Assembly: GCA_902615855.1 (NCBI GenBank)
Contig: CACMQN010000005.1
Location: 8,596 to 72,595 of the forward strand
DNA length: 64,000 nt
DNA from: an uncultured Candidatus Actinomarina sp.
Lineage (GTDB): Bacteria; Actinomycetota; Acidimicrobiia; Actinomarinales; Actinomarinaceae
Reading direction: 5' to 3'
Made by a program: the position numbers and the translations under genes. The stretch's first letter is position 1. Each line of letters starts with the position of its first letter. Below are positions 22,900 through 32,416 of this stretch, in pieces. A model generated the notes under the pieces. That model worked only from the letters and a program-made list of their open reading frames with translations. It was not told the origin of the DNA and did no database searches.

Positions 22900-25161
22900 A
22901 TGGATTTATCTGTAACACCAGCAAGTTTAGTTTCTTCAGTTTATGAGAATCTAACTGAGAATATTAAGAAATTAAGAGAGAGAAAAAATGCTCCTCTCAC
23001 TCTGGCTGAAAAACTTCTCTTTGGACATGCAACAGATATCAACTCTGTTTCTCTAAATAAAGGAGAAGACTACGGAGACTTTGCACCCGATAGAGTTGCA
23101 ATGCAAGATGCAACAGCACAAATGGCTCTACTGCAATTTATGCAAGCAGACCTTCCAGAAACAGCAGTTCCAACAACTGTACATTGTGATCATTTAATTC
23201 AAGCTTATGAAGGAGCAGCTAGTGATCTTCAAGTTGCAAATAAAACTCATAAAGAGGTTTTTGACTTCTTAAGAACTGCTTCCGAAAAATATGAAATAGG
23301 TTTTTGGGGACCTGGGGCTGGAATTATCCATCAAGTAGTTTTAGAACAATATGCATTTCCAGGTGGAATGATGATCGGTACGGATAGTCATACTCCTAAC
23401 GCTGGAGGTCTATCCATGATTGCAATTGGTGTTGGAGGTGCAGATGCAGTTGACGTAATGGCTGGTATGCCTTTCAATACAAAAATACCTAGCTTGATTG
23501 GAGTGAAGCTAACTGGTTCACTGAGTGGCTGGACGTCTCCTAAAGACATTATTTTAAAAGTTGCAGAAATCTTAACGGTTAAAGGTGCAACGAATGCAAT
23601 AGTTGAATACTTTGGAGAGGGTACGAAAACCATTTCAACCACTGGAAAGGCAACTATTACAAATATGGGTGCAGAGATTGGTGCAACTTGCTCAATATTT
23701 CCATATGATGAAAAGGGAAGTGCTTATCTAAAGGCTACTGGTAGAGATGAAATAGCTGAATTAGCAGACTCTAGAATGGATTTACTCACTGCTGATGATG
23801 AAGTATTAGAAAACCCAGAAGAATTTTTCAATCAAGTTATAGAGATTAACTTAGATGAACTAGAGCCTCATATTGTTGGACCACACACACCAGATTTAGC
23901 TAGACCAATTTCTGGATTAAAAAAGGATGCAAACGACAATGAGTATCCTGTAAAAATCTCAAGCGCATTGATTGGATCTTGTACAAATTCATCATATGAG
24001 GACATTGGTAGAGCTGCTTTTATTGCTAGAGAAGCTGCAAAGCATGGTCTTAAGGCAAAAGTACCATTGATGGTTACTCCTGGCTCAGAACAAACCAGAG
24101 CAACAATAGAACGGGATGGATACTTAAAGGATTTAGAATCTATTGGAGCTACTGTCCTTGCGAATGCATGTGGTCCTTGTATCGGTCAATGGAAAAGAGA
24201 CGACATCAAAGAAGGGGAGAGTAACTCAATCGTCTCATCGTTTAATAGAAACTTTCCTGCTAGAAATGATGGAAATGCAGAGACACTATCATTTATTGGT
24301 TCACCAGAATCAGTTATAGGTTTGGCACTTGGTGGTACATTAGATTTCAACTTCTTAAGCGACACTCTTACTACTCAAGATGGAGAAGAAATTTTACTCA
24401 ACCCACCTGTTGCTGATGAATTACCTGATAAAGGTTTTGAAGAAACACTAGAGGGATTTATTCAACCAACACCTGGTGATGATGTTGAAGTAATAATTGA
24501 TCCAGAATCAAATAGACTTCAAAAACTTACCCCATTTCTTCCACCTAATGAAGAAGACTATGTTTCAATGAGCGTCTTAATGAAGGCAGAAGGAAAATGT
24601 ACAACTGACCATATTTCTCCTGCTGGTAAATGGTTACAGTTCCGAGGTCATCTTGAAAATATTTCACAAAACTTGTTCAATGGAGTCAATAATGCATTTT
24701 CTGAAAAAGCAGGTGATGGTGTAAACATACTCACAAAGGAAGTCGATACATTGCCAAACATAGCAAAGAATTACAGTGAGGAGAATGTTAGCTGGGTAGC
24801 TGTTGGGGATGAAAACTATGGTGAGGGCTCATCAAGAGAGCACGCAGCAATGGAGCCGAGATTTAGAGGCTGTAAGGTCGTGTTGGTAAAAAGTTTTGCA
24901 CGAATACATGAAGCAAACTTAAAGAAGCAAGGTATTTTACCTCTAGTCTTTGAAGACAAAAATGATTATGAAAAGATAGAACAGTTCGACAAAATGACTA
25001 TCGGTAGCCTAAAAGATATTGCAGTTGACACACCCGTTGAGATTATTCTCGAAAAAGAAAATGGTGAAACAGAGACAATCAAAGCAAATCATTCTCTATC
25101 TGAGGATCAGATTGCTTGGTTTTTTGCTGGTTCTGCATTGAACTATATCAAATCAAAATAA
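22900..25161 (+). CDS. acnA: Aconitate hydratase (compact, mitochondrial-like type)
   Basis: DRVAMQDATAQMALLQF, HCDHLI, GTDSHTPN, IGSCTNSSY, NACGPCIGQW, TTDHISPAG, NYGEGSSREHAA. Confidence 0.95.
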   Translation: MDLSVTPASLVSSVYENLTENIKKLRERKNAPLTLAEKLLFGHATDINSVSLNKGEDYGDFAPDRVAMQDATAQMALLQFMQADLPETAVPTTVHCDHLIQAYEGAASDLQVANKTHKEVFDFLRTASEKYEIGFWGPGAGIIHQVVLEQYAFPGGMMIGTDSHTPNAGGLSMIAIGVGGADAVDVMAGMPFNTKIPSLIGVKLTGSLSGWTSPKDIILKVAEILTVKGATNAIVEYFGEGTKTISTTGKATITNMGAEIGATCSIFPYDEKGSAYLKATGRDEIAELADSRMDLLTADDEVLENPEEFFNQVIEINLDELEPHIVGPHTPDLARPISGLKKDANDNEYPVKISSALIGSCTNSSYEDIGRAAFIAREAAKHGLKAKVPLMVTPGSEQTRATIERDGYLKDLESIGATVLANACGPCIGQWKRDDIKEGESNSIVSSFNRNFPARNDGNAETLSFIGSPESVIGLALGGTLDFNFLSDTLTTQDGEEILLNPPVADELPDKGFEETLEGFIQPTPGDDVEVIIDPESNRLQKLTPFLPPNEEDYVSMSVLMKAEGKCTTDHISPAGKWLQFRGHLENISQNLFNGVNNAFSEKAGDGVNILTKEVDTLPNIAKNYSEENVSWVAVGDENYGEGSSREHAAMEPRFRGCKVVLVKSFARIHEANLKKQGILPLVFEDKNDYEKIEQFDKMTIGSLKDIAVDTPVEIILEKENGETETIKANHSLSEDQIAWFFAGSALNYIKSK

Positions 25162-25812
25162 ATGGACAGTATATCTGACAAAGTTAAAAAAATTAGGGTT
25201 GAGTACGAAGACAAGCCACTAAATATCGAAGATCTAGATACCAATCCTTTAGAGCAGTTTAATGTATGGTTTCAAATTGCTATTGACGCAGAGGTTAATG
25301 AAGCAAATGCAATGGCGATATCTACTATCAGCGAAGAGGGAACACCAAGATCAAGGTACGTACTATTTAAGGATATTGTAGACAACAAACTTGTTTTCTA
25401 TTCAGATTATGGAAGTAGCAAGGGTCGGGAAATGGAAAACAATCCAAATATTTCGGGATTATTCTTTTGGCCTGAGTTACATCGTCAAATTCGACTTGAG
25501 GGTGTAGTTTCTAAAACATCCAATGTGGTATCTGATAACTACTTTGCTTCAAGACCGAGGGGAGCACAACTAAGTGCTATTGCATCAAGTCAAAGCACTG
25601 AAATTGAAGGAAGAGAAACGGTTGAAGACAGGATTAAAGAGTTGGAAATAGAATTTGAAGGAAAAGATATTCCAAGACCAGACAATTGGGGTGGCTATGC
25701 AATTGATATTAGTTTCTGGGAGTTTTGGCAGGGTAGAAGAAGCAGAACCCATGATCGCTTTATTTATGCTAAAAATGATAATTCATGGGAAATAACTAGA
25801 CTATCACCTTAA
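25162..25812 (+). CDS. pdxH: Pyridoxine/pyridoxamine 5'-phosphate oxidase
   Basis: SRYVLFK, FFWPELHRQIRLEG, YFASRP, WGGY, EFWQGRRSRTHDR. Confidence 0.95.
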   Translation: MDSISDKVKKIRVEYEDKPLNIEDLDTNPLEQFNVWFQIAIDAEVNEANAMAISTISEEGTPRSRYVLFKDIVDNKLVFYSDYGSSKGREMENNPNISGLFFWPELHRQIRLEGVVSKTSNVVSDNYFASRPRGAQLSAIASSQSTEIEGRETVEDRIKELEIEFEGKDIPRPDNWGGYAIDISFWEFWQGRRSRTHDRFIYAKNDNSWEITRLSP

Positions 25813-25823
25813 GAAATAGATTT

Positions 25824-26492
25824 ATGAGAGATATTAAAGTAACCAAAGATTTTATTAATTCAGAAAACACTTCAGTGCTCTATGAGTCTGGAAACACGAA
25901 AGTTTTGATTACTGTTTCCATTGCTGACAAGGTCCCAAGATGGCTTGAAAACTCTGATAAGGGTTGGTTAACAGCAGAATACAATATGTTGCCTGGATCT
26001 TCAGATCAGAGAATATCAAGGAAATCATTCGAAGGTGGAAGATCAAAAGAAATCTCAAGACTAATAGGTAGGTCACTCAGATCAGTTTGTGACTTAGCAA
26101 TACTCAATGGTTATTTAGTAACCGTTGATTGTGACGTACTAGATGCCGATGGGGGAACTAGAACTGCATCAATTAACGGTGCTTGGATCGCTCTGAATGA
26201 AACATTCAATAATCTTGTTGAACAAAAGAAATTAGTGCAGAATCCCCTAACTAATCAAATTGCTGCTCTATCAGTAGGTATTGTTAATGGCGAATTCATA
26301 GCAGATCTAGATTACGAGAAAGATTCCAATGCTGAAGTTGATTTAAATCTTGTATTAAACGATAAATATGAAATTTTGGAAATTCAAGGAACTGCAGAAC
26401 AGAAGCCTTTTTCAAAAGAGAGTCTGGATAAACTTTTTGAAATAACAAAAGACGAAGTTAATAAAGTATTTGATATTCAAAAAAGTACATGA
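25824..26492 (+). CDS. rph: Ribonuclease PH
   Basis: GWLTAEYNMLP, EISRLIGRSLR, DCDVLDADGGTRTASING, DLDYEKDS, EIQGTAE; followed by rdgB. Confidence 0.94.
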   Translation: MRDIKVTKDFINSENTSVLYESGNTKVLITVSIADKVPRWLENSDKGWLTAEYNMLPGSSDQRISRKSFEGGRSKEISRLIGRSLRSVCDLAILNGYLVTVDCDVLDADGGTRTASINGAWIALNETFNNLVEQKKLVQNPLTNQIAALSVGIVNGEFIADLDYEKDSNAEVDLNLVLNDKYEILEIQGTAEQKPFSKESLDKLFEITKDEVNKVFDIQKST

Positions 26493-27055
26493 AAATTTTA
26501 TTTGCCAGTAAAAACAAAAATAAATATAACGAAATTAAAGAAATTTTAAATAATAAAGATTATGAATTTGTTTTTAAGAATGATCTAAAGGATGTTGAAG
26601 AAGACAAAAATACAATATCAGATAATGCAGAAAAAAAGGCAGTCGAAACATTTACAACATACAACTTACCAATTATTTCGGATGATTCAGGTTTATTTGT
26701 CGAGGCATTGCATGGAAGACCAGGAGTAAGTACAGCAAGATATGCTGGCCCAAGTGCTTCTGACGAAGAGAATATCAACAAGTTACTTTTCGAAATGAAA
26801 GAAATTGAAAATAGAAAAGCATTTTTTAAAACAGTTCTATGTTTTTTTGATGGAGAAAAAAAAATATTTGGCGAAGGTATTTTACATGGGGAAATCACTA
26901 CTTTTAAAAAAGGATTGAATGGATTCGGATATGACCCTATATTTTTAGTAAATAAAAAAACATTAGCGGAACTAACTATTTTTGAAAAAACTAAAATCAG
27001 TCATAGAAAAAAAGCAACTTTAGACTTAAAAAATAAACTAGATGATATATTTTAG
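26489..27055 (+). CDS. rdgB: Non-canonical purine NTP pyrophosphatase (Ham1)
   Basis: DDSGLFVEALHGRPGVSTARY, GFGYDPIF, KISHR. Confidence 0.94.
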   Translation: MKILFASKNKNKYNEIKEILNNKDYEFVFKNDLKDVEEDKNTISDNAEKKAVETFTTYNLPIISDDSGLFVEALHGRPGVSTARYAGPSASDEENINKLLFEMKEIENRKAFFKTVLCFFDGEKKIFGEGILHGEITTFKKGLNGFGYDPIFLVNKKTLAELTIFEKTKISHRKKATLDLKNKLDDIF

Positions 27056-27719
27056 AAAAATTTTGTTTTTGGTACCGTTTTTGTTTTTAACAAACTGTCA
27101 AGCAAACTGGGAATTTAATCTTGTTGTCGATGAGGGAGGAAGTGGAAATTATACAATTTCAATTTTGATTGATCAGGAAGCTCAACAGTATGCAGTTGAT
27201 ACCGGACTTACACCTATAGGTGGGTTAGATATAATTCTTGAATCCCTTCCCGATGGTTTTGGTTCAAGTATTTTTAATGAAGGTGATCTTTTAGGTATAA
27301 AAATAAGACAAACTTTTGATTCATTTGAAATGCTAAATCAACAACTTGATAGTCTGAAGCAAAATGAAAATACATCACTTTTACTCTTGCCACTAAAAAA
27401 AATTAATTTCCAAATGGACGAAGATAAATACACCATCAATGGAAAATTTGCCGAGTTATTAAACAAAAATCTTTTAGAACCAACAGATGCAGAGCAACTT
27501 TATAATGGAAGCCTGTCAATAAAACTTCCTGGAATAATAGAAGAACCTAAATTAAATGAAATCAATGACAATACAGTTATATTTTTACATGATGGGTTAA
27601 ACGAACAAACCTTTCTTATTTCATCTAATAATGCTAGAAATCAATGGATCCTCGGTCTGATTATTGTAATGTTGTCAGTTATATTATTTTTTGGTAGACA
27701 ATTATTTTATCGACAGTAA
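27042..27719 (+). CDS. LppM-like lipoprotein with C-terminal TM
   Basis: Lipobox LTNC, a ..VDEGGSG.. beta motif, IKLPG and a C-terminal hydrophobic anchor. Confidence 0.55.
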   Translation: MIYFRKILFLVPFLFLTNCQANWEFNLVVDEGGSGNYTISILIDQEAQQYAVDTGLTPIGGLDIILESLPDGFGSSIFNEGDLLGIKIRQTFDSFEMLNQQLDSLKQNENTSLLLLPLKKINFQMDEDKYTINGKFAELLNKNLLEPTDAEQLYNGSLSIKLPGIIEEPKLNEINDNTVIFLHDGLNEQTFLISSNNARNQWILGLIIVMLSVILFFGRQLFYRQ

Positions 27720-27728
27720 TATAGTCCC

Positions 27729-27755
27729 ATGATTAATTTCATAATTATCACTTAA
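27729..27755 (+). CDS. Ile-rich leader peptide MINFIIIT upstream of cimA
   Basis: ATG ATT AAT TTC ATA ATT ATC ACT TAA: 4 Ile in 8 codons, immediately followed by competing hairpins. Confidence 0.8.
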   Translation: MINFIIIT

Positions 27756-27777
27756 GAACAACGAACTAATCGTTGTT

Positions 27778-27804
27778 ACCCTTGCGTTGCAAGGGTTTTT
27801 TTTT
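27778..27804 (+). terminator. Attenuator terminator
   Basis: ACCCTTGC-GTT-GCAAGGGT followed by a T-run to 27804, 12 nt upstream of the cimA ATG. Confidence 0.9.
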
Positions 27805-27816
27805 GGAAGAAGACGA

Positions 27817-29379
27817 ATGAAGATAGACATATTTGATACGACACTTAGAGATGGGTTCCAGCAGGAGGGAATCTCCCCATCAGTAAAGGATAAATTAGCT
27901 ATTGCTAAGTTAATTGACGAATTGGGTGTTGATTTTATTGAAGGCGGATGGCCAGGAGCATCACCCAAGGAAAAAGAGTTTTTTGATAAAGCAAAAAAAG
28001 ATTTAAAGCTCAAGAATGCAAAATTAGTTAGTTTTGGTTCTACTAGAAAATTAAATGTAAAAGTTGAAGACGATCCACAAGTACAGGCACTTATTGATTC
28101 TGAAACGGAGTATGTCTGCATAGTAGGTAAATCATCTAATCTTCACATTACAAAAGCACTAGAGACTGATGTTGACAGTGCAATTTTAATGGCTACTGAT
28201 ACTGTTAAATATCTAAAAGATAATGGACGAAAAGTATTTTTTGATGCAGAACATTTCTTTGATGGCTTGAAAGAGGATTCAGAGACTACTTTGAAAATTT
28301 TAGATGCAGTAGTTAAAGAGGGCGTTGATTGTTTTATATTTTGTGATACAAATGGAGGAACTCTTCCTCATGAGATAACTGATCTATTAACTCCAATTGT
28401 TGAAAAGTATCAAGATCAATCATTTGGTGTTCACTTTCAAAATGATAACGGTTGTGCTGTAACAAACTCACTTGCTGCAGTAAACCTTGGCGTGGAACAT
28501 GTTCAAGGGACTATGAATGGTTATGGCGAGCGTACAGGTAATGCGGATCTTTGTACCCTTATTCCTAATCTCTCTTTAAAAATGGACTTTGAGACGGTAC
28601 CAGAAACGTCTCTTGAAAAATTAACACCAATAGCAAATCACATTGCAGAATTAGTTAATATCGCTATTGATTCAAGACATCCTTATGTTGGTTCATCTGC
28701 TTTCACACATAAGGCAGGACTTCATGCTTCTGGTATGTCAAAAGACAATACTCTGTACGAGCACATAAACGCTAGTCAGGTAGGAAATTATACAAGAACT
28801 ACAGTTTCTGAGTTAGCTGGAAGGGCAAGTGTAATAACTAAAGCAAAAGAATTTGGAATAGAACTTACAAACGATGATGCAAAAAACCTTATTGAGCAAG
28901 TACAGGATCTTGAATATCAAGGGTTCCAGTTTGAGGCTGCGGACGGTTCTTTATATTTATTAATGAAGAAGATCAAAGGAGAAAAGCCATCATTTTTTGA
29001 TTTCGAAAGCTTCAGAGTGTATTCAGAAAGAAGAAACTCTGAAAACGTTGTTTCAGAAGCTGTTTGTAAAATATCTGTAGGTGAAGAAAGATTCGTAACA
29101 ACGGGAGAGGGAGTTGGTCCTGTCGACGCATTAAATAAAGCTTTGAAATCTGCTCTGAATAAGAACTATCCGGATGTAGATAAGATTAAATTAACTGACT
29201 ATAAAGTGAGAATCATTGACTCTTCAGATGGAACTGAGGCAAAAACGAGAGTTCTCGTTGAATTTACAGATGGCGAGATTAACTGGAGCACTATTGGTGT
29301 TCACGAAAATATAATTAATGCATCTTGGAATGCTTTATGTGATGGCTTTAATTATTATTTTATGGAAAGTTCATCATAA
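27817..29379 (+). CDS. cimA: (R)-citramalate synthase (LeuA-like)
   Basis: DTTLRDGFQQEG, FFDAEHFFDG, NGYGERTGNADL, SAFTHKAGLHAS, LeuA-type regulatory domain (GEGVGPVDAL). Track start 27787 lies inside the terminator; ATG 27817 preferred. Confidence 0.9.
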   Translation: MKIDIFDTTLRDGFQQEGISPSVKDKLAIAKLIDELGVDFIEGGWPGASPKEKEFFDKAKKDLKLKNAKLVSFGSTRKLNVKVEDDPQVQALIDSETEYVCIVGKSSNLHITKALETDVDSAILMATDTVKYLKDNGRKVFFDAEHFFDGLKEDSETTLKILDAVVKEGVDCFIFCDTNGGTLPHEITDLLTPIVEKYQDQSFGVHFQNDNGCAVTNSLAAVNLGVEHVQGTMNGYGERTGNADLCTLIPNLSLKMDFETVPETSLEKLTPIANHIAELVNIAIDSRHPYVGSSAFTHKAGLHASGMSKDNTLYEHINASQVGNYTRTTVSELAGRASVITKAKEFGIELTNDDAKNLIEQVQDLEYQGFQFEAADGSLYLLMKKIKGEKPSFFDFESFRVYSERRNSENVVSEAVCKISVGEERFVTTGEGVGPVDALNKALKSALNKNYPDVDKIKLTDYKVRIIDSSDGTEAKTRVLVEFTDGEINWSTIGVHENIINASWNALCDGFNYYFMESSS

Positions 29380-29410
29380 AATTTTTATAATTACGTTAGG
29401 TAATTAAAAA

Positions 29411-31357
29411 ATGTCTGAAAAAATTGAAAATTTACTTGGAGAAGATAGAACTTTTGAACCTCCATCGAGCATTGTAGAGAATGCAAACGCTACAAAAGAA
29501 TGGTTTGACCTAGCCAATGAAGACAGACTTGCTTACTGGCAGAAACAAGCTTTAGAGAGAATCACTTGGTATAAAGAACCCAAAGAGATTTTGGACGACT
29601 CAGATGCACCTTTCTATAAATGGTTTAAGGATGGAGAACTCAACCTTTCTTACAATTGTCTCGACCGTCATTTAGAGACTGATGCAGACAGAATTGCTTT
29701 TTACTGGGAGGGAGAACCAGGAGACTCTCAAGAAATAACCTATCAAGATCTTTATGAGAGGGTCTGTAAACTTTCAAATGGTCTCAAAGAGCTTGGTGTG
29801 AAGAAAGGTGATAGAATCGCAATTTACCTTGGTATGACCCCTGAAATTGTTATCTCCATGCTTGCATGTGCAAGAATAGGTGCTGTACATTCTGTTGTAT
29901 TTGGAGGTTTTTCTGCAGAAGCTCTAGCTGACAGAATTAATGATGCCGAAGCAAAAGTTGTAATTACAGCTGATGGTGCTTGGAGAAGGGGAGATATAGT
30001 TCCTTTAAAACAAAATGTGGATGACTCCCTAAAGCTTACCGATCACATAGAGAGCGTAATAGTTGTAAAGCGAACTGAGAATGAAGTAACCATGGTTGAT
30101 GGTAGAGATTATTGGTATAGCGAACTTGTAGATAAGCAGGAAGCCGATTGTGAACCAGAAGTAATGAATGCAGAGGACATGTTATATATCCTCTATACAT
30201 CAGGTACAACAGCTAAGCCAAAAGGAATCGTCCACACACAGGCTGGATATCTTACTGGTGTTACTACAACACATTCCGCTGTATTTGATGTAAAGGAAGA
30301 TGACATCTATTGGTGTGCCGCAGACTGTGGTTGGGTAACAGGTCATAGTTATATTGTGTACGGACCTTTAGCAAACAAAACAACAAGCGTTATGTATGAG
30401 GGTGCACCAAACGCACCAGATGAGAAAAGACTTTGGAGTATCGTTGAAAAATATAAAGTAAATATATTTTACACTGCCCCAACTGCAATTAGAGCTTTCA
30501 TGAAGTGGGGAGTCGAACATCCCCAAGCACATGACTTAACGTCACTCAGATTGTTGGGTACTGTTGGGGAGCCAATTAACCCAGAAGCCTGGATGTGGTA
30601 CCACGAAAACATAGGAAATGAATCCTGTGCAATTGTAGATACATGGTGGCAGACAGAGACTGGTTCAATAATGATTACACCCCTGCCAGGCATTACGAGT
30701 ACAAAACCGGGGTCAGCATGTGGTCCAATGCCAGGCATAGATGCAGTTGTTGTTGATGAAAATGGAAATGAAGTTTCAAAAGGTGAAGGGGGATATTTAG
30801 CAATAAAAACACCTTGGCCATCAATGCTTAGAACAGTGTTTGGAGATGAGAAAAGATATATTGACACCTATTGGTCAAAGTATGATGGTATGTATTTTGC
30901 AGGAGATGGAGCAAAATATGATGATGATGGATATTTCTGGCTTCTAGGAAGAGTTGATGACGTGATGAATATATCTGGACATAGAATTTCAACTGCTGAA
31001 GTAGAAAGCGCACTTGTTGCACATGAATCGGTTGCTGAGGCAGCAGTAATAGGCAGAGCTGATGAGATTTCTGGAGAAGCTATTGCTGCATTCGTAACAT
31101 TAATCGGTGGTTTTGAGGGCAATGAAGATCTTATATCCACTCTTAGACAACATGTGAGCGATAAAATTGGTCCGATTGCTAAACCTAAAAGTATTGTCAT
31201 TACAAACGATCTTCCAAAAACAAGAAGCGGAAAAATTATGAGAAGATTGTTGAAAGATATTTCTGAAGAAAGAAAACTAGGAGATGTAACCACATTGGCA
31301 AATGCGGATATAGTTTCTGAGTTACAAACAAGATCATCTGAATCAAGCGATGAATGA
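29411..31357 (+). CDS. acs: Acetate--CoA ligase
   Basis: LYTSGTTAKPKG, DCGWVTGHSY, VDTWWQTETG, YFAGDGA, GRVDDVMN, PKTRSGKIMRR. Confidence 0.96.
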   Translation: MSEKIENLLGEDRTFEPPSSIVENANATKEWFDLANEDRLAYWQKQALERITWYKEPKEILDDSDAPFYKWFKDGELNLSYNCLDRHLETDADRIAFYWEGEPGDSQEITYQDLYERVCKLSNGLKELGVKKGDRIAIYLGMTPEIVISMLACARIGAVHSVVFGGFSAEALADRINDAEAKVVITADGAWRRGDIVPLKQNVDDSLKLTDHIESVIVVKRTENEVTMVDGRDYWYSELVDKQEADCEPEVMNAEDMLYILYTSGTTAKPKGIVHTQAGYLTGVTTTHSAVFDVKEDDIYWCAADCGWVTGHSYIVYGPLANKTTSVMYEGAPNAPDEKRLWSIVEKYKVNIFYTAPTAIRAFMKWGVEHPQAHDLTSLRLLGTVGEPINPEAWMWYHENIGNESCAIVDTWWQTETGSIMITPLPGITSTKPGSACGPMPGIDAVVVDENGNEVSKGEGGYLAIKTPWPSMLRTVFGDEKRYIDTYWSKYDGMYFAGDGAKYDDDGYFWLLGRVDDVMNISGHRISTAEVESALVAHESVAEAAVIGRADEISGEAIAAFVTLIGGFEGNEDLISTLRQHVSDKIGPIAKPKSIVITNDLPKTRSGKIMRRLLKDISEERKLGDVTTLANADIVSELQTRSSESSDE

Positions 31358-31843: not shown

Positions 31844-31926
31844 TGCGGATGAGAGGACTCGAACCTCCACGAGCAAAGCTCACTAGATCCTAAATCTAGC
31901 GCGTCTACCAGTTCCGCCACATCCGC
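31844..31926 (-). tRNA. tRNA-Leu, anticodon TAG
   Basis: GCGGATG acceptor, CTAGA-TTTAGGA-TCTAG anticodon arm, long variable arm, GTTCGAGT; CCA not encoded. Confidence 0.96.
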
Positions 31927-31937
31927 TAAATGTCGCG

Positions 31938-32010
31938 TGGGTCGCCGGGGACTTGAACCCCGAACCTGCGGATTAAGAGTCCGTTGCTCTGCCAATTGAG
32001 CTAGCGACCC
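31938..32010 (-). tRNA. tRNA-Lys, anticodon CTT
   Basis: GGGTCGC acceptor, loop CTCTTAA, GTTCAAGT; CCA not encoded. Confidence 0.95.
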
Positions 32011-32105
32011 TTTTTACAGATTAACTTAACTCATAATACTTAACTATAAATTTTTTGATTTATTGTTTCCATAAAAGCGTTATCATGGAACAATAATTAG
32101 ACGTG

Positions 32106-32180
32106 CGGGCTGTGGCTCAGCTTGGCTAGAGCGCCTGCTTTGGGAGCAGGAGGTCGTGAGTTCGAATCTCACCAGCCCGA
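32106..32180 (+). tRNA. tRNA-Pro, anticodon TGG
   Basis: CGGGCTG/CAGCCCG acceptor, CCTGC-TTTGGGA-GCAGG, GTTCGAAT. Confidence 0.96.
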
Positions 32181-32185
32181 CTAGC

Positions 32186-32256
32186 GCGGGTGTAGCTTAA
32201 TGGCAAAGCTCCAGCCTTCCAAGCTGGCTATGAGGGTTCGATTCCCTTCACCCGCT
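32186..32256 (+). tRNA. tRNA-Gly, anticodon TCC
   Basis: GCGGGTG/CACCCGC acceptor, CCAGC-CTTCCAA-GCTGG, U73. Confidence 0.96.
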
Positions 32257-32262
32257 CAAGAG

Positions 32263-32336
32263 GCTCTCGTAGCTCAAATGGATAGAGCAACAGACTTCTA
32301 ATCTGTAGGTTATAGGTTCGAGTCCTATCGAGAGCG
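32263..32336 (+). tRNA. tRNA-Arg, anticodon TCT
   Basis: GCTCTCG/CGAGAGC acceptor, ACAGA-CTTCTAA-TCTGT. Confidence 0.96.
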
Positions 32337-32340
32337 CCGT

Positions 32341-32416
32341 GGTGATCGTAGCTCAGTTTGGTTAGAGCGCCTGGTTGTGGTCCAGGAGGTCGCGGGTTCG
32401 AATCCCGTCGGTCACC
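32341..32416 (+). tRNA. tRNA-His, anticodon GTG
   Basis: Encoded G-1 pairing with C73, CCTGG-TTGTGGT-CCAGG, GTTCGAAT. Confidence 0.96.

Follow-up and report, generated by a model that had tools for sequence, protein, structure and literature searches.

A putative isoleucine leader-peptide attenuator lacking an overlapping antiterminator upstream of the citramalate synthase gene of Candidatus Actinomarina

Introduction

Candidatus Actinomarina (class Acidimicrobiia) has a genome of 1.07 Mb with 32% G+C, and in a 64,000-nucleotide stretch of it (contig CACMQN010000005.1, positions 8,596 to 72,595 of the forward strand; hereafter the window) the gene cimA, which encodes (R)-citramalate synthase, lies behind a compact leader made up of a promoter-like sequence, an eight-codon open reading frame (ORF) with a run of isoleucine codons, a hairpin (H1) and an intrinsic terminator. 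The question raised by this locus is whether these parts form a regulator that responds to isoleucine and, if so, how a ribosome on so short an ORF could decide whether RNA polymerase passes the terminator. Leader-peptide attenuation is well known, including at ilvB in Corynebacterium and Mycobacterium (PMC11857589, PMC10272879, PMC13236596, PMC1262725). A further principle has been described in tug-of-war riboswitches, whose antitermination is attributed to steric competition for the polymerase exit channel and requires short spacers and balanced stabilities; this design accounts for ~10% of the ZTP riboswitches found in nature (Bushhouse, Fu and Lucks, bioRxiv 10.64898/2026.06.17.733018). 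Here we describe the cimA element as a real, apparently unpublished isoleucine leader-peptide attenuator. As judged from its sequence, it has the features of that class save an overlapping antiterminator, and it also has the sequence-level features of a tug-of-war switch.

Results

Organisation of the cimA leader

The hexamers TAGACA and TAATAT, the ATG and its ORF, H1, the terminator and cimA were each located where a first-pass annotation of the window had placed them (Table 1). The leader peptide, MINFIIIT, contains all three isoleucine codons and leaves no room for a Shine-Dalgarno sequence. H1 starts 4 nt past the first base of the leader stop codon and its end abuts the terminator with a spacer of 0 nt, while the terminator has an 8-bp stem and a run of nine T, the first of them paired, that reaches position 27804, and is one of just 28 strong terminators genome-wide. 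Including its own 5' end the whole unit measures 77 nt. The cimA ATG follows the U tract at a distance of just 12 nt, into which no promoter fits, and cimA would therefore be transcribed only by read-through of this terminator.

The identity of the regulated gene is clear, and the choice of CimA over LeuA made in the first-pass annotation holds. Its product scores 639.8 bits against the NCBIfam model TIGR00977 (citramal_synth; cutoff 450), whereas every LeuA model falls below its own cutoff, the best of them reaching 275.9 bits against a cutoff of 517. The protein carries the Pfam domains HMGL-like and LeuA_dimer, and a separate leuA-like gene is present elsewhere in the same genome. Upstream, an ORF of 225 aa (27042-27719), for which no Pfam or NCBIfam match was obtained, terminates within the leader promoter, and a five-gene cluster on the same strand (22900-27719) precedes the leader with its stop 59 nt upstream of the terminator.

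Table 1. Predicted parts of the cimA leader in the window and further leader-peptide attenuators of the same genome
Feature	Position	Strand	Remarks
-35-like hexamer TAGACA	27695-27700	+	lies in the final codons, GGT AGA CAA, of the 225-aa ORF upstream
-10 hexamer TAATAT (TAnnnT type)	27717-27722	+	16-nt spacer after TAGACA; first three bases are the TAA stop of the upstream ORF
Leader ORF ATG ATT AAT TTC ATA ATT ATC ACT TAA (MINFIIIT, 8 codons)	27729-27755	+	stop 27753-27755
Isoleucine run ATA-ATT-ATC	27741-27749	+	proposed sensor in the leader ORF
Hairpin H1	27757-27777	+	AACAACGA (27757-27764), loop ACTAA, TCGTTGTT (27770-27777); 8 bp, -7.6 to -8.3 kcal/mol
Intrinsic terminator	27778-27804	+	ACCCTTGC (27778-27785), loop GTT, GCAAGGGT (27789-27796), then U tract
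Link GGAAGAAGACGA	27805-27816	+	12 nt between U tract and cimA start; too short for a promoter
cimA	27817-29379	+	(R)-citramalate synthase, 520 aa, regulated gene; TIGR00977
ilvB leader attenuator	G000:C3:132250-132363	+	before acetolactate synthase large subunit (570 aa; TIGR00118, 755 bits); outside the window
DAHP synthase leader attenuator	G000:C8:40560-40672	+	before a 339-aa gene (NF006421, 453 bits); outside the window
trp leader	G000:C6, base 40531 of the reverse-complemented contig	-	MKNITNLNWWTST, then stop; before trpB2; outside the window

Conservation in Actinomarina and Acidimicrobiia

We compared the regions upstream of cimA at two depths, using 18 Actinomarina relatives with usable upstream sequence as a genus set and ~107 Acidimicrobiia cimA loci as a class set. 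The promoter, an ORF of 7-8 codons, H1, the terminator and cimA are kept in 18/18 genus relatives, with leader peptides that read MINFIIII, MMNIIIII or MNIIIII, MKKIIIII, MKKIIIIV and MQKIIIIV. Across the class, 58 of the ~107 loci share one layout; these amount to 53 distinct sequences, most of them with 65-70% G+C, and MSASIIIIA, MFMPVAIIIIV and MTTNPTWTIIIIE are examples of their leader peptides. In the 53 distinct relatives the leader ORF has 7-17 codons, starts with ATG or GTG and stays in frame, and its N-terminus is variable, while its C-terminus consistently consists of a run of 2-5 isoleucine codons followed by 0-2 codons and the stop, which is TAG in 38/53. In the G+C-rich relatives the rarer codon ATT makes up 29% of leader isoleucine codons compared with 8% in the cimA coding sequence (odds ratio 4.6).

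In G+C-rich leaders (L020-L087) a nucleotide motif, ATCATTAT(C), is also retained in the isoleucine runs, and the position of the rare ATT in it is constant. Both CATTAT and CATCAT are similar to CATACT, the local -10 consensus, which makes a promoter-proximal sigma-dependent pause conceivable in these leaders alongside slowing by the rare codon.

Both RNA structures are likewise retained. Across the family H1 begins at a distance of 0-6 nt from the first base of the stop, and 0-7 nt separate it from the terminator (<=4 nt in 50/53). H1 folds in every relative despite 29 distinct 5'-arm hexamers, with a mean fold z of -4.5, and shows one AU<->UA covarying pair within the genus. The terminator shows compensatory changes at 6/8 pairs across the family. 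Alignment of the whole family with MAFFT and RNAalifold recovered the terminator but not H1, whose variable-length stems misalign, and per-sequence folds were used for H1 instead. The first-pass proposal of an isoleucine-codon leader-peptide attenuator on citramalate synthase is thus borne out, with the isoleucine codons, their frame, H1 and the terminator all conserved in the genus and the class, and this conservation establishes, at the level of sequence, a translated, isoleucine-specific leader coupled to a terminator.

The promoter is also part of the conserved unit. Its -35 hexamer is invariant among the Actinomarina relatives and is TTGACG at the same position in G+C-rich relatives; the -10 hexamer varies as TATTAT, TAGTAT, TAACAT and TAAAAT, or CATACT in G+C-rich relatives; and the 16-nt spacer is conserved, the class plan for G+C-rich genomes being TTGACG-N17-CATACT. 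At five loci (L002-L006) another gene lies upstream and ends before TAGACA, and TAGACA and all downstream parts are nonetheless retained, which shows that the unit belongs to cimA. In relatives that have a homologous membrane-protein tail upstream, the reading xxT AGA CAA (V/G-R-Q) is kept over the -35.

Most loci without the leader have cimA right behind an ilvE-like gene. One such arrangement (L111:2260-2420; G027:C1) has a leader ending ATT ATT ATT CCC TAG, a hairpin and a terminator in front of a leuB-ilvE-cimA operon. When the upstream regions of six loci without an adjacent leader were extended, the element was found in 2/6, with none in 4/6 under the criteria used.

These comparisons bear on the alternative of no regulator at all, under which the short ORF would have arisen by chance from the high A+T content of the genome and the hairpins would serve only to terminate the upstream operon. 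An isoleucine run alone is indeed weak evidence at 32% G+C, as 160 sites genome-wide have at least three isoleucine codons followed by at most one codon and a stop, and our promoter scan yielded no more promoter-like sites than shuffled sequence. However, only the cimA leader among those 160 sites has one of the 28 strong terminators within 70 nt. Furthermore, ORF, frame, isoleucine run, H1 and terminator are kept in 53 distinct sequences that include genomes of 65-70% G+C, where three consecutive isoleucine codons are very rare by chance, and the promoter is kept where the upstream gene differs, with no other route to transcribe cimA. Comparative evidence is therefore decisive for the element being real; an origin by chance, or as a plain terminator, is scarcely credible and is excluded by the comparative data. 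The element is very probably an isoleucine-sensing attenuator of cimA. Searches with Rfam 15, which includes T-box and amino-acid leader families, returned only tRNAs above gathering thresholds in the window, and a permissive search of 27600-27900 gave nothing meaningful at E <= 10.

A probably leaderless ORF

The end of the -10 hexamer lies 6 nt before the ATG in the window, 6-7 nt before the start in Actinomarina and 6-12 nt (mode 9) in almost all relatives; the four rows with 4 nt are cases where our script chose an alternative hexamer. With a -10 that ends 6-12 nt before the start codon no Shine-Dalgarno sequence can fit, and the leader ORF is probably leaderless or nearly so, in keeping with the first-pass annotation, whose proposal fits this promoter-to-ATG geometry. 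Leaderless mRNAs are common in mycobacteria. In Streptomyces lividans, leader peptides encoded by leaderless ORFs have been described (PMC8079986).

Absence of a competing helix

The cimA element has no overlapping antiterminator, that is, no segment 2:3 helix set against the 3:4 terminator. The first-pass annotation had suggested one at the base of the stem, where TAAG (27753-56) would pair with CTTG (27781-84) and so take the lowest bases of the terminator 5' arm, with a ribosome at the stop codon blocking the pairing. This part of the proposal did not survive. Formed across an ACC bulge, the extension is destabilising in the window, at -8.0 kcal/mol against -8.3 for H1 alone (+0.3), and is absent from every minimum-free-energy fold of the window. 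Over 17 genus sequences, 92.6% of cells allow pairing at these four positions, and a change from TAA to TAG merely turns an A-U pair into G-U, but the terminator side is invariant anyway and no two-sided changes occur within the genus. Over the 53 sequences, extending the base of H1 gained -2.12 kcal/mol, no better than the -2.18 obtained with shuffled flanks.

Some support for competition of this kind comes from sister species (L010 and L017 types), where H1 extends 2 bp into the first 2-3 bases of the terminator (-10.9 and -11.3 kcal/mol), an extension that would be transient, existing before the 3' arm of the terminator is made. Further precedents are the ilvB leader of the same genome, where hairpin and terminator overlap by 2 nt, and C. 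glutamicum ilvBNC, which operates via a shared GCC trinucleotide (PMC11857589). Against this, a ribosome waiting on the second or third isoleucine codon would itself cover TAAG, and we consider base-of-stem competition very unlikely at cimA.

A wider search gave the same picture. In the 53 sequences, complementarity of the leader and H1 to the two terminator arms did not go beyond that of shuffles (mean z +0.40 and +0.38), with z = +0.65 in the window, and H1 and the terminator coexist in every minimum-free-energy fold. The same test applied to controls from the same genome gave z -3.15 for trp, -2.11 for the DAHP synthase (aro) leader and -3.12 for ilvB. As these controls are detected by the same test, the missing competing helix is a property of the cimA element and not of the method.

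These controls also revise the impression, given in the first-pass annotation, of a genome with almost no other regulatory RNA: it has at least four leader-peptide attenuators, on cimA, ilvB, the DAHP synthase gene and trpB2. The ilvB leader peptide, MKKSVNLISLLVLVLM followed by a stop, is succeeded by a hairpin (GCGCTCA/TGAGCGC) that begins at the G of the TAG stop and runs by the 2 nt noted above into the terminator GCCTCCC/GGGAGGT-T9; the loop of this hairpin contains a palindrome identical to the leucine and valine codons (TACTAGTA) of the leader, and the two can pair as well. The DAHP synthase leader, MKINTYFYFRAHI and a stop, carries a Tyr-Phe-Tyr-Phe run and has a classical 1:2 helix, and its antiterminator TGCCC:GGGCA overlaps the terminator AATCGGGC/GCCCGATT-T7. 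For the trp leader the pairing is between GTGCCC, which follows the stop, and GGGCAC, which belongs to the terminator 5' arm.

Three further candidates at cimA were considered and rejected. A helix between GCAACG in the H1 5' arm and CGTTGC at the terminator apex was set aside as the terminator loop varies in relatives (GTT, ATT, TTT, CTT, ATG), and one between an A-rich start, ATGAAAAAAA, and the U tract as this start is missing from the lineage of the window. In the window the cimA frame has no stop in the 24 codons that precede its ATG, a stretch that begins at 27745 and spans H1 and the terminator, such that a +1 shift in the isoleucine run would enter it; this hungry-codon frameshift was dismissed as the frame is closed in three relatives (G009, G001 and G017; open frames 519-520 aa), and the open frame is probably due to chance.

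The equilibrium probability of the terminator under ribosome masks was ~0.97 in all states of the cimA leader, and ~1.0 for the trp and aro controls. Given that the classical controls also give ~1, this test cannot discriminate and is not relied on here. It touches, though, on the possibility that the terminator is a constitutive, partly leaky insulator of cimA from the upstream operon, with termination unaltered and a stalled ribosome acting post-transcriptionally, e.g. by shielding the 5' end of the read-through mRNA from a 5'-exonuclease. Stabilisation of mRNA by stalled ribosomes is known for the erm leaders of Bacillus, and the terminator, which forms thermodynamically in every modelled state and lies 59 nt past the stop of the five-gene cluster, would terminate that cluster too. 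However, the equilibrium result is uninformative for the reason just given, the element stays with cimA irrespective of which gene lies upstream, and a stability mechanism has no need of precise placement of H1 relative to stop and terminator, all of which makes the insulator highly doubtful.

Ribosome position, H1 and termination

Measured from the first base of the last isoleucine codon, H1 has its base 5-12 nt downstream (mode 7-8). From this geometry and assumed footprint sizes, a ribosome whose A site is at the stop codon would open 72-96% of H1 pairs, whereas one on the last isoleucine codon would open only ~2/10 and one on the first isoleucine of the run none. This conserved register suggests H1 as the transducer: since an isoleucine-stalled ribosome would leave H1 intact and a stop-codon ribosome would open it, folded H1 would be the 'on' state. 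In addition, H1 tends to be more stable where its spacer to the terminator is longer (Spearman rho = -0.41, p = 0.01, n = 38 G+C-rich sequences, uncorrected for phylogeny).

Taken as a whole, the locus is best explained by a ribosome-mediated transcription attenuator that couples cimA to the supply of charged tRNA-Ile; in the explanation as a whole, with the course of events set out below, our confidence is evenly balanced. More tentatively, and with somewhat less than even confidence, we propose that H1, a plain hairpin between the leader stop and an autonomous terminator, transduces the signal sterically, as in a tug-of-war, with no antiterminator helix. Transcription would start at or within a few bases of the ATG at 27729, from TAGACA-N16-TAATAT, a 70S ribosome would translate the eight-codon leader, and RNA polymerase would have to pass the terminator to reach cimA 12 nt further on. 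With Ile-tRNA plentiful, the ribosome would reach the stop at 27753 and its leading edge would unzip the H1 5' arm; the terminator would then have a flexible single-stranded 5' flank, fold fully and stop transcription. With Ile-tRNA scarce, the ribosome would wait on ATA-ATT-ATC and H1 would stay folded, its 3' end flush against the first base of the terminator, with the stalled ribosome parked at the 5' base of H1 adding to the block. The lowest pairs of the terminator could then not be completed and polymerase would read into cimA. H1 would in this way be an antiterminator by position, competing for the exit channel while having no bases in common with the terminator.

Several considerations weigh against this steric proposal. 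H1 is weaker than the terminator in the window (-7.6 against -11.4 kcal/mol) and has an A-U-rich base, so under this model the parked ribosome must contribute to the block, a step that we infer ourselves; in the tug-of-war study simple hairpins had only a small effect, mainly on weak terminators (bioRxiv 10.64898/2026.06.17.733018). H1 would also be folded when no ribosome is present, and from this design, in contrast to classical attenuators, expression would be expected to leak or to be on by default. The relation between spacer and stability is modest and not corrected for relatedness, and the missing competing helix is negative evidence from nearest-neighbour folding, which leaves room for pseudoknots and protein partners. 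Lastly, the transcription start, termination at the predicted site and the response to isoleucine are all predicted from sequence.

H1 could alternatively be a pause or synchronisation hairpin that holds polymerase ~10-12 nt downstream, with read-through brought about by direct or NusG-bridged contact between ribosome and polymerase. A leaderless unit of 77 nt would plausibly need a pause for translation to keep up, H1 occupies the position of the 1:2 pause hairpin of classical leaders, and its folding shortens the RNA path from ribosome to polymerase; NusG, moreover, influenced tug-of-war switches in B. subtilis (bioRxiv 10.64898/2026.06.17.733018). Yet a pause hairpin gives no reason for the tight spacing of 0-7 nt between H1 and the terminator and leaves the spacer-stability relation unexplained, and we estimate that the stalled ribosome would be ~45-65 nt behind the termination point, beyond the collided-expressome distance unless the RNA loops out. 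We therefore regard a mainly pausing role as rather unlikely.

Neighbouring genes

An acetyl-CoA synthetase gene (TIGR02188, 979 bits) lies at 29411-31357, after a gap of 31 nt from cimA, and a promoter-like TGGAAA-N17-TATAAT is found at 29363-29391, within the end of cimA. As CimA consumes acetyl-CoA, this adjacency may be functional. Further downstream is a cluster of six tRNA genes at 31844-32416, two on the minus and four on the plus strand, the last of which (32342-32416) overlaps the listed GTG start (32377) of the trigger-factor ORF; the true tig start is probably further downstream than this GTG.

Discussion

For decades, teaching has presented leader-peptide attenuation as overlapping RNA helices in competition. 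The cimA element, in which isoleucine codons, stop codon, hairpin and terminator keep a strict register across the class with no overlapping helix, suggests that ribosomes can also govern termination by another route. If the steric proposal is true, it would link leader peptides to the tug-of-war principle, so far shown only for riboswitches (2026). For the Acidimicrobiia, a class with one of the smallest free-living marine bacteria among its members, the element also indicates isoleucine-specific control dedicated to the threonine-independent (citramalate) route to isoleucine. A class-wide unit of 77 nt would, if our reading is true, be among the smallest complete attenuators known and, being small and modular, could serve as a compact amino-acid-responsive part. 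Searches for attenuators that require an antiterminator will overlook elements of this class. No account of a leader peptide or attenuator for cimA turned up in our literature search, and there is no Rfam family for it; likewise, neither the tug-of-war preprint nor the literature searched gave an example of a leader-peptide tug-of-war.

Among known systems, the element resembles the enterobacterial leaders trpL, hisL, leuL, thrL and ilvL/ivbL in having a short translated leader rich in codons for the end product and an intrinsic terminator before the biosynthetic gene, where ribosome position decides termination, as we propose for cimA. Those leaders, however, have an ORF led by a Shine-Dalgarno sequence and four segments, with a 2:3 helix that shares segment 3 with the terminator, whereas the cimA ORF is probably leaderless and has just eight codons, H1 has no bases in common with the terminator, and the terminator has no upstream complement.

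Closer in phylogeny are C. glutamicum ilvBNC (PMC11857589; ilvB-II motif, PMC10272879) and the upstream ORF of M. tuberculosis ilvB1 (PMC13236596), from the same phylum, where an upstream ORF with branched-chain amino-acid codons is likewise followed by a Rho-independent terminator; the adjacent hairpins at cimA also recall those of ilvBNC, which there are antiterminator and terminator. These actinobacterial ilvB elements nevertheless differ in their leaders of 120-170 nt, in an antiterminator that overlaps the terminator (by GCC in C. glutamicum), which cimA lacks, and in sensing leucine, valine and isoleucine together in control of ilvB, while the cimA leader has isoleucine alone and controls cimA.

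An ORF at the 5' end of the transcript is shared with Streptomyces leuL, trpL and ilvL (PMC8079986) and with the polycysteine upstream ORFs of mycobacteria (bioRxiv 10.1101/834739), leaderless peptides of 12-18 aa that are followed by hairpins and sometimes a U tract. Unlike the element described here, none of these is reported for cimA or with a pure isoleucine run, and the mycobacterial cysteine ORFs, according to their citation in PMC13236596, act on translation and not at a terminator.

In the arrangement of its RNA the element is most like the tug-of-war riboswitches, whose regulatory structure lies 0-4 nt upstream of an autonomous terminator without overlap, just as H1 does at cimA with its spacer of 0 nt and neither overlap nor complementarity. 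The two differ in what sets the upstream structure: in the riboswitches a ligand stabilises an aptamer, whereas at cimA a translating ribosome would gate a plain hairpin.

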